DNA of 64,000 nt from Dictyostelium discoideum (lineage: Eukaryota), in assembly GCA_000004695.1 (NCBI GenBank), contig CM000151.3, positions 7,712,001 through 7,776,000 of the forward strand. Direction: 5' to 3'. The first letter of the stretch is position 1, and the number at the start of each line of letters is the position of its first letter. The position numbers were made by a program, and so were the translations under genes. This document shows positions 3,094 through 42,040 of the stretch, piece after piece. The notes under the pieces are model-generated. The model was given only the letters and a program-made list of their open reading frames with translations. It had not been told where the DNA came from and searched no databases.

Positions 3094-3119
3094 AGCGATC
3101 TATTTTGATTTTTAAAAAG

Positions 3120-3191
3120 CTCCCTGTCCGGGAATTGAACCCGGGCCTTTCGCGTGACAGGCGAAAATCCTCACCACTAGACCAACAAGGA
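3120..3191 (-). tRNA. tRNA-Asp, anticodon GTC
   Basis: The reverse complement is TCCTTGTTGGTCTAGTGGTGAGGATTTTCGCCTGTCACGCGAAAGGCCCGGGTTCAATTCCCGGACAGGGAG (72 nt). It has a 7-bp acceptor stem, an anticodon loop CTGTCAC, a TTCAATT T-loop and discriminator G. A T5 run (CTTTTTA) follows immediately downstream. Confidence 0.9.
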
Positions 3192-5197: not shown

Positions 5198-10630
<5,433 letters not shown>

Positions 10631-26675: not shown

Positions 26676-26757
26676 TGTAAGCTAAGGGATTCGAACCCTT
26701 GTATCAATGATATTGCAGCCTTAATGCAACCCCTTAGACCAGCTCGGGCAAGCTTAC
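26676..26757 (-). tRNA. tRNA-Leu, anticodon AAG (type II, long variable arm)
   Basis: The reverse complement is GTAAGCTTGCCCGAGCTGGTCTAAGGGGTTGCATTAAGGCTGCAATATCATTGATACAAGGGTTCGAATCCCTTAGCTTACA (82 nt). It has a perfect 7-bp acceptor stem, a D-loop GAGCTGGTCTAAG, an anticodon stem-loop TTGCA-TTAAGGC-TGCAA, a 12-nt variable arm and a T-arm AAGGG-TTCGAAT-CCCTT. It is followed by ATAATTTTTG. Confidence 0.88.
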
Positions 26758-37432: not shown

Positions 37433-38051
37433 TAATAATAATAATAATAAAAATAATAATAATAATAATCATATTATAAATAATAATAATATTGGTATAT
37501 TAAATCAATTATTTTTAAATTTTGATGAAGGTTTAATAAAAGAAATGTTAGATAGATTTAAAAAAATTCAAAAAATTTTAAAAAGATCTTTAAATAATAA
37601 TAATAATAACAGTGATAATAATGATAATAGTAATAGTGAAAAAAAATTAATTACACATTATGATTTATTAAAGAAAATAAAACCAGTTACTTATTATTAT
37701 TATATGGCATTATCATATGAATATATTGATCCATATAATAATATATATAAACATGATTATATTGATTTATTAAGAAGGAATCCTCCAAAAGATATTAGAA
37801 AATTTAATAAATTATTATTATCACAAGATTATAGGGAAGGAAATATTCAACATAATAAAATCTCTTTAAAAGAAGCAATTCAAGAATTAATTTTAAATTC
37901 ACCTGTTAAAGATTTTACAATTAAAAATCAACAACAACTACTACAACAACAAAATTCAGAATCATTCATTAAAAAATGGAAATTAATGATTGAATCTTTA
38001 AATTTAACAGACTTTAAATATCATCAATCTTGGTTAAGCCAATCAATTTAA
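36048..38051 (+). CDS. Asn-rich hypothetical protein of 667 aa in a single exon, with no recognisable domain
   Basis: ATG at 36048. There is a continuous ORF with Dictyostelium-typical poly-N insertions. Confidence 0.5.
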
Positions 38052-38159
38052 TTTTAAAAAAGAAAATAAAAACAATAATAATAATAATAAATAATTAAAA
38101 AAAAAAACAAATCAACAACTTTTTTTTTTTTTTTCTCAAAACCTAAAATTATGTTTGAA

Positions 38160-38345
38160 TAAGGAAATATGGTAAAATAAATAAAATAAAAAATAAAATA
38201 AAGAATAAAACAAAACTTAACTCAAATAGGTGATAACATTTAAATACAAAAATTCCCAACCCAATCCTCGGGTAGGTCTCACTCTCTTTTTTTTTTTTTT
38301 CAGATATTTTTTTTTTTTTTGATTACTATTTTTAGATTTTTTTTT
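38160..38345 (+). repeat. Copy A of a dispersed ~190-bp repeat, about 80% identical to copy B at 40265..40470 and in the same orientation
   Basis: The shared blocks are atgtttgaWtaaggaaata ... ctcaaataggtKaYaacatttaaatacWaaaaYtcccaaccYaatcctc...cactcWctc-(T)n-attaYtatttttagattttttttt. Confidence 0.7.
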
Positions 38346-38721
38346 CTTTTACTTTTTTATTTTCCGCCTTAAAAAAAAAAAAAAATTTTTTCATTTGAAT
38401 TAAAAAAAATAAATAAAAAAAAGATTTTTATTTTATTTTTTAAATAAATGAGACATATGATGTCATTAATATTTTTTATTTTATTTTTCCTAGAAATAGA
38501 TATACATTGTTGATATTGCCTATTCAATGAAGTTAACTTTATTTTTTTGAGTCCCAACAAAACTTAAAAAAAAAACTATTATTTTAATTTTTAATTTTTT
38601 TCAAAAAATAAATATCTAACGATATTTTTATAGTTTTTTTTTTTTTATATAAAATTAACATGGTTTTTTTTTTTTATTTTTTTATTTTATTTTCAAACCA
38701 AAACACGTTACACGAAAAAAA

Positions 38722-39531
38722 ATGACTACTATGCTTAAAGAATCATATAAATTAATATTAATATTATTCGTATCATTATTTGTTACATGCTCATTATGTA
38801 TCAATTATCAACCAACCACTGATGATGATTTAAATTCATCTGAACCAACTCAAAAATGTGTATTTGTTGATGATGATGGAAAGACTATTGATTTGACTCC
38901 AATCCAAGGGTACTTATTATAATATAAATTAATTTAAATCTTCCACCCAAACTAACCATTTTTTTTTATTTTTTATTTTTATTTTTTTATTTATTTTATA
39001 GGGGTTACTCTTATTTTGATGCACCAAGCGGTACTGAAGTATGTAGTTAAATTATAAATACATAATTATTAATTTATTTTTTTATTTAAAATTGTATGGA
39101 AAACTTTGTTTTTTAACTTTATTTTTATTTTTTTTTTTAATTTTTATTTTTAGTATCATTATGGAATTTGTTCACCAAATAAATATTGTCAAAAATTATT
39201 AAATACAGATGTTGAAATTGAATCATGTGGTATATTCTCATCACCAAATGTAACATATGCAATTAGTTTATTTGATAGTAATACAAATTCAGTTCAAGTT
39301 TATACAGAAGTTACAAATTTATTTTATTATAGAAATGTTGGTGTAAATGTTTGTCCAGGTAATGGTTTAATGTCAATGCAATTAGAATTAAATTGTAATT
39401 ATTATTTTAATTTTACTGTCCATACTGTTTTACAAGCTAGAACTTGTAATACCATAATTTCAATTGGTACAATTCATGCATGTGAAGCCGGTAGTAAACC
39501 AGATGATACTCATGTTTCTTTAAATATTTAA
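38722..39531 (+). CDS. Small secreted protein of about 200 aa with a possible MRH (mannose-6-phosphate receptor homology)-like domain. Exons are 38722..38909, 39002..39038 and 39154..39531.
   Basis: The signal peptide is MTTMLKESYKLILILFVSLFVTCSLC. Donor GG|GTACTT is phase 2 and acceptor ttttatag|G follows it; donor GAA|GTATGT is phase 0 and acceptor tttag|TAT follows it. The mature region reads KCVFVDDDGKTIDLTPIQGGYSYFDAPSGTEYHYGICSPNKYCQ...C...C, which fits the MRH Cys/Tyr spacing only loosely. Confidence 0.45.
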
Positions 39532-39805
39532 AATAAAATTTAATTAAATAACTATATTTAGTATTTTCTTAAAATAAATCATTATATTTTGAATATAATC
39601 AAAAAATGAGATGTTGTTTTTATACTTTTTTATTATATGTTAATATAGACGTTATTAATTTACAAAATAAAGGTAAAAGTGTTTTTTTTAATAAATGATA
39701 ATTTTTTTTTTATTTTTTAAATAATTTTTTTTCTTTTTTTAAATTACTTATTAAGTTCACAAGTTTTATAAAATTCAAATACCCTTTGAGTTGATATTAA
39801 AGTTA

Positions 39806-40239
39806 TATTTACATATTATTTTAAATCACTATTGTTAGGAAATTGCGATAGCAAATTATTAGAATACATTTTTGCTTTTTCAATAGCCTCATTGGTTAGG
39901 TTGATAGTTTGATCCATTGCAATTTGAATTGAACCACATTGTTAAGTAATTATTTTAACCAAATTAACAAAACTTTTTTCTTTAAATTCTTTTTTGAATG
40001 ATGAACAATCATTTACTAAAATGCCAACTGAACCAATCCAAAAAATAAACTCTTTAAAATTTTCAGAGTATTTAATGTTATTTGATAAAGTAAGATGTAA
40101 TGAAAAACAAGCTATACAATGTCCATGACCACCATCAAGAGCTCTTAAATTTAAATAATAAATAGGTTCATATTTAATAAAACATCATTTGACTTATTAA
40201 TATATTGAGAAAATGATTTTTCAATAAATCTTGAACCCA
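39806..40239 (-). pseudogene. Terpene synthase (class I, microbial-type) pseudogene fragment. It covers only the C-terminal part, including the NSE/DTE metal-binding motif, and is interrupted by stops and frameshifts.
   Basis: The minus strand reads MGSRFIEKSFSQYINKSNDVLLNMNLFII*...DGGHGHCIACFSLHLTLSNNIKYSENFKEFIFWIGSVGILVNDCSSFKKEFKEKSFVNLVKII...AMDQTINLTNEAIEKAKMYSNNLLSQFPNNSDLK*. NDCSSFKKE matches ND(L/I/V)xSxxKE. There is no upstream DDxxD region. It lies immediately downstream of repeat copy B on the minus strand, at the copy's 5' edge on plus coordinates. Confidence 0.5.
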
Positions 40240-40264
40240 TGACCCAATCTTTTGTAATCAAAAT

Positions 40265-40453
40265 GTTTGATTAAGGAAATATTGCAAATCCCAAAATAAT
40301 ATTCTCTAAAAATGGGATTTAATTTTAAAATAAAAATAAAGTCTTTCTCAAAAAAATAGGTTATCATTTAAATACTAAAACTCCCAACCTAATCCTCAAG
40401 TGTGCAACGCACTCACTCATTTTTTTTTTTTTTTTAATTATTATTTTTAGATT

Positions 40454-40470
<17 letters not shown>
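40265..40470 (+). repeat. Copy B of the dispersed ~190-bp repeat (see 38160..38345)
   Basis: Aligned by eye; about 80% identity over roughly 150 nt plus a T-run. Confidence 0.7.
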
Positions 40471-40506
<36 letters not shown>

Positions 40507-40527
40507 AAAAAATATCATTTAATAACA

Positions 40528-42040
40528 ATGAATAAAATTGTAATAATTAAAAATCAAACCATAATTATAAAAATTATAAATTATTTAACATCATTTTGGG
40601 TTAGTGGTGGTAAATTTGGAGATTCATCGTCAAATGAAATGTTTTCATTAGTTTTTATTGGGATAGTACGTGATTTATCAATGGTTTCAAAGGAATGGTA
40701 TAATACAATAATACCAATTGGATTGAAATTACCACAATACTATCTACTAAATGAAAGTGAATTATTGAATAAAGGAATTAAAAGAATGATTAATTCAAAA
40801 TCAATATTCATTAAATTAGGTAGTGTTACAAATGCTAATCATAAATCTAGATTATTAAATGAATTCAGTGATTCGATATCATCGATTACATTAAAACCAA
40901 ATTTCAATGCAACTGATATAAGTAATAGTAACCAATTCAATATTAAACCATGGTGTTTTAAAAATTTACAAAGTTTACAACTAAATTTAGGAGATTATCC
41001 AAATTGGAAAATTTATTTAAATCATTTATTCCCAATTAATCAATTCAATTCACAAATTAATGCTACAAATGATCAATTAGAATTATTAAATAAATTACAT
41101 AATGATTCAAATTGTGTTAATTTAACATCAATTAATGAAATTACAAATAATAATAATAATAATAATTATTATAATTTTGATTGGACAAATCAATTGAAAA
41201 CTTTAATATTAGATTTCACCACTACCACTACCAACACTACAAATGCCACCACTGATTTTGATTTAACAATTTTTGATAATTTCATTAAATTGGGTGGTTT
41301 TTATAAATTAAATACTTTAAAATTGAAATCAAATTTAAAGAGAGTTGATGGTTTATGTTCAGAATTAACCAAAAAAGTTGAAACATTTCAATTATATGGT
41401 ATTAGAATTGATAGTGAACAAATTTCAAAATTACTTGCATCAACTTCAAATAATTTAAAATTCTTTGAAACTTCACAATGTTTACCATTAATTGGATCAA
41501 AATCAATTTGTGAAACTTTGAAATCAATTTTTTCAAATTCAAATAATTCTTGTAAATTAGAATCATATCATCAAACTTCATACTCTAATGAAGATTTAAA
41601 TGATTTAATATCACTTTTATCATCATCAAATAATGAAAATTTTAAATCTTTGAAAATTAATAGTCAAATTGAACTTTCAAAAAATTCAAACTCCAATAAC
41701 AATAACAACAGTGGTAGTGGTAGTAGTATTGGTTATAATCAATCATCAATTCAATATCTATCATTAATATTACCAGACACAAGTTTTTGTAAATTTATTT
41801 TCTCAAAAGTTTCATTTAAATTAACAACTTTAAATCTTAAATTTATAAGATTCTATTCATCAAATTTAAACGATAAATTAAATAATGATACAGAAATGAT
41901 TGATATTATAATTGAAATTTTAAAAAATCAAAATCAATCTTTAAAAATTTTAAAAATTCAAAATACTATTTCAGATTTAGATAAATTAAAACAAAATCCA
42001 ATTAATTGTTCAATTTCAAAATTATTATCTTTTATTTGTG

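Follow-up and report, generated by a model that had tools for sequence, protein, structure and literature searches.

The stretch of DNA analysed here (the window) comprises 64 kb of chromosome 2 of Dictyostelium discoideum AX4, with a G+C content of 23.6%. Between the genes for a 200- and a 714-residue protein the minus strand carries a sequence related to terpene synthases (TPS), which we call the relic, and two copies of a repeat are found close by (Table 1). The gene for the 714-residue protein, a single exon without a Pfam domain, appears to be a fast-evolving orphan. In a limited word-indexed search homologues of this protein were found in the D. discoideum group alone, with 91-93% identity in strains that are not AX4-like. 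The T run directly upstream of its ATG is nearly pure, about 80 nt long, and differs in length among all five assemblies compared. Further neighbours include a Cys-tRNA synthetase gene, a spliced NDUFS8-like gene and two tRNA genes; tRNA genes are known landing sites of the Dictyostelium TRE retrotransposons.

Table 1. Features of the window. Positions count from its first nucleotide and asterisks within translations denote stop codons.
Feature	Position	Strand	Remarks
tRNA-Asp(GTC)	3119-3191	minus	
ORF, AX4 clathrin heavy chain	5834-10630		falls in the 90%-identity cluster
ORF, DDB_G0277197	20529-21206		exact match
tRNA-Leu(AAG)	26676-26757	minus	
Gene, 667 residues	36048-38051		single exon, no Pfam domain
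Repeat copy A	38003-38363		between the 667- and 200-residue genes; blastn, alignments
Gene, 200 residues	38722-39531	plus	at the downstream end of the relic interval
Ancestral stop codon TAA	39746-39744	minus	end of the C-terminal half
Relic, C-terminal half	39744-40157	minus	approximately DdTPS8 residues 176-312; profile, PF19086, tblastn
Nonsense TAA, DLK*YV	39816-39818	minus	alignment with relatives
Nonsense TAA, KIIT*QCG	39942-39944	minus	replaces a conserved L/I codon
NSE/DTE motif VNDCSSFKKE	39987-40016	minus	N-D-x-x-S-x-x-x-E, class I metal-binding; read directly
Putative N-terminal segment 2, KDWVMGSRFIEKSFSQYINKSNDVLLN	40158-40252	minus	approximately TPS residues 37-64; second frame; tblastn
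Putative N-terminal segment 1, (I)KSHF*RILFWDLQYFLNQTF*LQKI	40246-40326	minus	third frame; tblastn
Repeat copy B	40263-40503		between the relic and the 714-residue gene; blastn, alignments A1 and A4
T run	40421-40503	plus	
Gene, 714 residues	40528-42672	plus	on the other side of the relic

The minus strand from 39744 to 40326 is a TPS pseudogene of the class I microbial type. Its 5′ part reads as an open stretch, MGSRFIEKSFSQYINKSNDVLLNM, followed by a frameshift and YEPIYYLNLRALDGG; the reading after the frameshift is YEPIYYLNLRALDGGHGHCIACFSLHLTLSNNIKYSENFKEFIFWIGSVGILVNDCSSFKKEFKEKSFVNLVKIIT*QCGSIQIAMDQTINLTNEAIEKAKMYSNNLLSQFPNNSDLK*YVNITLISTQRVFEFYKTCELNK*, with the landmarks ...VNDCSSFKKE...KIIT*QCGSIQIAMDQTINLTNEAIEKAKMYSNNLLSQFPNNSDLK*YVNITL...TCELNK*. 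The stitched translation matches Pfam family PF19086 (Terpene_syn_C_2) with 39.9 bits (E = 5e-10, cut-off 23.7) over profile positions 102-198 of 199, and a dictyostelid profile of our own, built from 11 dictyostelid TPS domains, scores 105 bits against the frame 40157-39760 (E = 1.3e-33, model positions 176-309 of 318). With tblastn, DpTPS6 and DdTPS8 find the C-terminal half at E values of 2e-18 and 3e-18, respectively. The NDCSSFKKE part of the NSE/DTE motif (40013-39987) aligns with NDxxSFxKE of all nine relatives and, because it lies inside the profile alignment, is not a low-complexity or chance match. The arginine of YLNLRALDGG, the diphosphate sensor, occupies an invariant alignment column 44 residues before the asparagine of NDCSS.

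Two elements of a working enzyme are missing. For the aspartate-rich DDxxD or first metal-binding motif, (F/I)I(I/L)DD, none of the frames of 39500-40700 holds a counterpart. The RY pair at the C terminus is likewise gone: the relatives end in ...RY(N/K/S), the relic in ...TCELNK* at the aligned position. Without DDxxD and the RY pair an active enzyme is not possible. A PDB sequence search with the relic returned no match. The preliminary description of this DNA, made from the letters alone, had proposed the similarity to terpene synthases, the NSE/DTE motif and the lack of the DDxxD half; all of these are borne out, the first by scores far beyond chance. It had confined the homology to a stretch of approximately 145 codons, however, and that extent is too small since TPS-derived sequence spans 39744 to about 40326.

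The same description had counted three stops or frameshifts, and the stretch to which it referred does hold exactly three such lesions, one frameshift (at about 40172/40157) and a pair of TAA codons in frame. In the alignment of nine relatives the TAA at 39944-39942 stands opposite L or I in ...KI.T(L/I)Q.GSIQ and that at 39818-39816 opposite K, Q, E, I or D in ...LK.Y. As the relatives have sense codons there and in-frame similarity persists before and after either TAA, these are nonsense mutations, not introns. Further upstream there is a TAG at 40308-40306 and a TGA at 40260-40258, a frameshift together with a small deletion separates segments 1 and 2, and the start ATG has probably been lost, with ATT at 40323-40321 in its place. 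In all, the relic has no fewer than four premature stops, two or more frameshifts and a loss of approximately 110 codons. None of the four annotated assemblies has a gene call on it.

The 173 bp above position 40157 bear on how the DDxxD region was lost. We consider it likely, on the alignments described here, that the relic keeps the first 65 or so and the last 135 or so codons of the gene, and that residues from about 65 to 173, DDxxD included, were removed by an internal deletion with its junction at about 40172/40157. The counterpart of segment 1 is DpTPS6 residues 1-22, MKQHILWDLNNYINQDYTLPKI. In tblastn searches DpTPS6 residues 5-22 (ILWDLNNYINQDYTLPKI) align with 40299-40246 (LFWDLQYFLNQTF*LQKI) at 22.7 bits and residues 37-64 of the first TPS domain from Tieghemostelium lacteum (REWIENIDFFQSKEISKYYNKSNASLLS) align with 40252-40172 (KDWVMGSRFIE-KSFSQYINKSNDVLLN) at 23.9 bits. 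Both matches are individually weak, and the domain scores of the dictyostelid profile for this part are negative; the two are colinear with the main match, each in a different frame. A score of 23.9 bits from N-terminal queries is reached by 0.17% of 3000 shuffles and by one of 1446 natural 173-bp windows (0.07%). No shuffle among the 3000 attains the 46.6 bits of the colinear pair sum, and neither does any of the 1446 natural windows, where the maximum is 40.8 bits.

The alternative is a simple 5′-truncated relic, in which the 173 bp would represent contiguous residues from about 145 to 173, or unrelated sequence, and no internal deletion took place. By eye KDWVMGS...QYINKSN does fit ...KKWVYSVLEYNKNNK... 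of the relatives, two phmmer alignments extend a few residues into the 173 bp, and the negative profile scores of the N-terminal reading point the same way. Yet mid-protein queries on 40158-40330 score 18.1 bits, which 17% of the 1446 natural windows equal, and their pair sum of 28.5 bits is reached by 65% of them. These are chance levels, set against an N-terminal score that natural windows hardly ever attain and a pair sum that no control matched, and we regard simple truncation as unlikely. A mid-protein origin of the 173 bp had been the first idea and was dropped because its scores are at chance level against natural windows. The N-terminal remnant, resting on colinearity and the empirical nulls, is probably genuine and the 5′ truncation absent. 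The MGSRF taken in the preliminary description for a start then aligns with TPS residues from about 40 to 44, and the truncation that it placed at the edge of the repeat gives way to N-terminal codons that run on into copy B.

How old is the lineage to which the relic belongs? HMMER, run exhaustively on 1.84 billion representatives, gave 13 matches at E ≤ 1e-3, and the closest proteins share no more than 30-37% identity with the relic; a word-indexed search had returned no match to the stitched translation, so that the exhaustive one was needed. The ten best matches of single-domain length are all dictyostelid or unnamed, metagenomic dictyostelid-like TPSs included. They are joined among the closest relatives by an 873-residue triple-domain TPS of T. 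lacteum (KYQ93189, E = 2e-11, 30% identity); the other best named ones are D. purpureum DpTPS6 (F0ZDD0, phmmer E = 3e-10, 35%) and D. discoideum DdTPS8 (Q54BE5, phmmer E = 6.6e-10, 34%). Identity between the relic and DdTPS8 amounts to 34% across 132-135 alignable columns; across these columns DdTPS8 and DpTPS6, themselves orthologues, reach just 40%. The collection searched covers annotated proteomes of D. citrinum, D. firmibasis and D. dimigraforme, and of several strains of D. discoideum; with no match above 37%, they presumably include no annotated intact orthologue. Judged by these comparisons, the relic is best described as the last trace of an old TPS family member whose nearest kin are the DdTPS8/DpTPS6 group. 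The T. lacteum protein (KYQ93189.1), a predicted one and the best database match, carries its three TPS domains in tandem and represents either a genuine triple fusion or a gene model into which three tandem genes were merged.

These identities do not sit well with a duplicated gene piece, as the sequence had earlier been described. Alignment with the closest paralogue was suggested at the time as a means of dating the decay; a close functional paralogue that might have served as a recent source is absent, and recent copying is left unsupported. Nor does the 64-kb window hold a second TPS; tblastn with the fragment finds only itself.

Repeat copy B overlaps the first codons of the relic. A whole-window repeat scan is dominated by low-complexity AT/AAT repeats; blastn with dust filtering gave the two-copy result, aligning 40354-40503 with 38224-38363 (74% over 150 nt, E = 5e-21). 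Copies A and B lie 2.1 kb apart on either side of the 200-residue gene and are the sole two copies in the 64 kb, their two short cores, 25 and 20 nt long and identical or nearly so, occurring nowhere else in the window. In the four other strains no position beyond those two shows the repeat, within the approximately 18 kb searched per locus. The ends of the copies fade into poly-T or AT-rich sequence.

Copy B consists, in order, of a 20-nt block, ATGTTTGATTAAGGAAATAT, an AT-rich stretch, the core CATTTAAATACTAAAACTCCCAACCTAATCCTC (40365-40397) and the long T run, which reaches almost to the ATG of the 714-residue gene at 40528. On the minus strand the 20-nt block corresponds to TPS codons from about 12 to 19, such that copy B holds the first 19 or so codons of the pseudogene and a TATA-like/oligo-dT region upstream of them. 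On that strand the core reads TATTTAAAT and is followed by an oligo-dT run; it points at the pseudogene, whose presumed start comes approximately 50 nt further downstream. A TATA element plus a T run is the usual layout of a Dictyostelium promoter, and the core with its oligo-dT run is a candidate promoter of the dead TPS gene. Copy A, positioned upstream of the 200-residue gene, contains the last 48 nt of the 667-residue gene with its 3′ flank. Within copy A, 38151-38170 is homologous to the TPS 5′ codon block and 38237-38269 is the core, and there is a T run as well. We infer that copy A is no transposon but an old partial duplicate of the 5′ end of the pseudogene with the TATA/oligo-dT region upstream. 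The 667- and 714-residue genes are not paralogues and have no Pfam domain, so the repeat is not part of a tandem duplication of those two genes.

The core forms an island richer in G+C (CATTTAAATAC.AAAA.TCCCAACC.AATCCTC; 38237-38269 and 40365-40397) within DNA of 24% G+C, and lies upstream of both the 200- and the 714-residue genes. The island may act as a promoter element that the genes share or that works in both directions, yet strain FIR (see below) is without copy B and has an intact 697-residue gene. An Rfam search of the whole window at the gathering threshold found the two tRNAs alone and a permissive search of 37900-40700 gave only sub-threshold noise; the island thus corresponds to no known RNA gene.

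According to another explanation the relic is a recent duplicate of a functional DdTPS, truncated at its 5′ end by a dispersed mobile element to which copy B belongs. The repeat does begin near the start of the long open stretch and the DDxxD region is absent. Set against this are the lack of a close paralogue (30-37% is the best among 1.84 billion proteins, and the window offers none), the persistence of N-terminal TPS codons inside the repeat, and, as set out below, the presence of the relic at the same syntenic site and with a common nonsense codon in a divergent lineage. Moreover the window holds just the two local copies of the repeat. The four ORFs scanned in its vicinity carry no transposase, reverse transcriptase or integrase Pfam family, and no transposon-related Pfam domain occurs in the genes called at the strain loci over some 8 kb. 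We consider this explanation very unlikely. The repeat of the preliminary description is real, its dispersal is not demonstrated, and the idea that its element moved or broke the gene is not supported, an internal deletion being the best explanation of the missing DDxxD half.

Orthologues of the 714-residue neighbour identify the corresponding locus in three D. discoideum assemblies, FIT (L004), FIW (L003) and FIR (L001), and in one of D. cf. discoideum, FIY (L002). Gene order is identical in all four; the gap between the 200- and 714-residue genes is 984, 490, 174 and 489 bp, respectively. The AX4-like FIT carries the whole relic, which in AX4 and FIT amounts to approximately 580 bp. It is 99.75% identical to AX4 over 39700-40493 in an independent assembly with the same lesions, which rules out sequencing error. 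FIY, whose flanks are 88-90% identical, keeps only 39795 to about 40010, some 200-250 bp of the 3′ part, together with a degenerate repeat core. FIW lacks approximately 39650-40265 and retains copy B, while FIR has neither the relic nor the core of the repeat. What FIW preserves of the TPS gene are the first 17 or so codons, KIKFHF*SILFWDLQYFLN, with the TAG as in AX4. KIIT is followed by TAG in FIY and by TAA in AX4. This nonsense codon, common to AX4 and D. cf. discoideum, means that the gene was dead before the lineages split. At the second AX4 stop (39818-39816) FIY has GAA, and it has a 1-bp deletion of its own; the second TAA and later lesions are lineage-specific.

In FIW the gene body is replaced by approximately 140 bp matching the 3′ end and flank of the 667-residue gene. 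The left 82 bp of this filler are 91% identical to copy A of the same strain, 1.7 kb upstream, compared to 68% for the rest of A against B. The filler could plausibly stem from ectopic gene conversion or repair that ran from copy A to copy B and was anchored in their common TPS 5′ sequence, a proposal on which we stand evenly balanced.

Other differences were noted among the strains. The intergenic region between the 200- and 714-residue genes is a hotspot of deletion and replacement (FIR 7838-7900, FIW 7522-7761 and FIY 7520-7929 of the respective loci, corresponding to window 39542-40457). An (AAT)n microsatellite after the stop of the 667-residue gene is about 80 bp longer in FIW (5960-6035 of its locus) than in AX4 (about 38075-38095; alignment A4).

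Two D. discoideum assemblies without the relic might suggest that the TPS fragment was gained in AX4/FIT and D. cf. discoideum, and was not ancestral and deleted in FIR and FIW. We find this highly improbable. FIY, more divergent in its flanks than FIR and FIW (88-90% as opposed to 93-95%), has the relic at the same site with the common stop. FIW retains its 17 or so TPS codons with the identical TAG, and its gap is filled by sequence with a close match 1.7 kb upstream, which looks like repair. For the polarity, loss in FIR and FIW and not gain in AX4, a single more divergent genome is decisive, that of D. cf. discoideum, the syntenic comparison covering strains of D. discoideum and D. cf. discoideum. 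We also caution that assembly errors in AT-rich intergenic DNA may affect the strain gaps. That the locus is a functional gene, its stops being sequencing errors or intronic, has nothing in its favour beyond a well conserved C-terminal half and can be dismissed given the identical lesions in FIT, the stops at conserved, codon-aligned positions flanked by in-frame homology, the absent DDxxD and RY elements and the lack of a gene call in four annotated assemblies.

We consider the following history of ancestral presence and stepwise loss very probable. A TPS gene stood on the minus strand between the 200- and 714-residue genes, once transcribed divergently from the latter. The nonsense codon after KIIT arose before AX4 and D. 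cf. discoideum separated; a single internal deletion probably removed the middle of the gene, residues from about 65 to 173 with DDxxD, and the 5′ end with its upstream region was probably partly duplicated long ago as copy A. The lineages erased different parts, AX4 and FIT least, FIY more, FIW nearly all and FIR everything, the gene body in FIW possibly being overwritten by copy A sequence through ectopic gene conversion or repair. It is conceivable, though it would surprise us, that the relic marks a tenth or later TPS lineage, extinct in AX4, which survives intact at the syntenic site, between the 200- and 714-residue genes, of a wild isolate or of a sister species within the D. discoideum complex. 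If so, the strains would form a natural series from a live gene to an empty site, an ectopic gene-conversion step included, by which deletion-driven gene loss in an AT-rich genome could be gauged, and which might reveal an extra terpene product.

The small TPS family of D. discoideum, with nine functional genes in the literature, gains one dead member, and its history includes the loss of one old lineage or more and not gains alone. The strain differences offer a small, clean case of a dead gene being erased stepwise, and the interval is usable as a PCR-sized presence/absence marker. The relic is otherwise ordinary, notable solely for the differing portions of it that wild strains have deleted; knowledge of terpene biosynthesis or of Dictyostelium genome biology is unchanged by it.

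Nine full-length DdTPS genes have been counted (PMC6156593, PMC6524965), and a predicted partial D. discoideum TPS beside CYP519C1 and DdTPS2, called ‘DpTPS11’, is on record (PMC6524965, citing Chen et al. 2016). No mention of a DdTPS10 or DdTPS11 was found in the literature searched, which did not extend to Chen et al. 2016. Like the relic, the partial TPS is an incomplete member beyond the nine; unlike it, that sequence is predicted to be protein-coding and has a P450 gene adjacent, whereas the relic is not called as a gene and the genes called at the strain loci over some 8 kb around it include no P450.

The best named matches, DdTPS8 (discoidol synthase, chromosome 6) and DpTPS6, with 77 bits by tblastn, have NDCxSFxxE, NxVKI, QxGSI and (F/Y)PN(N/H)xxLK in common with the relic, and its N-terminal WDLxxYxNQ resembles DpTPS6. 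The relic differs in its chromosome, in its stops and frameshifts and in having neither DDxxD nor the RY pair, and with 33-34% identity over 132 columns it is a copy of neither. The closest parallel in kind is provided by unitary (orphan) pseudogenes, which likewise have no functional parent and carry one common inactivating mutation, followed by lineage-specific deletions and presence/absence polymorphism. Compared to these the relic shows no unusual feature, and its behaviour is the standard one.
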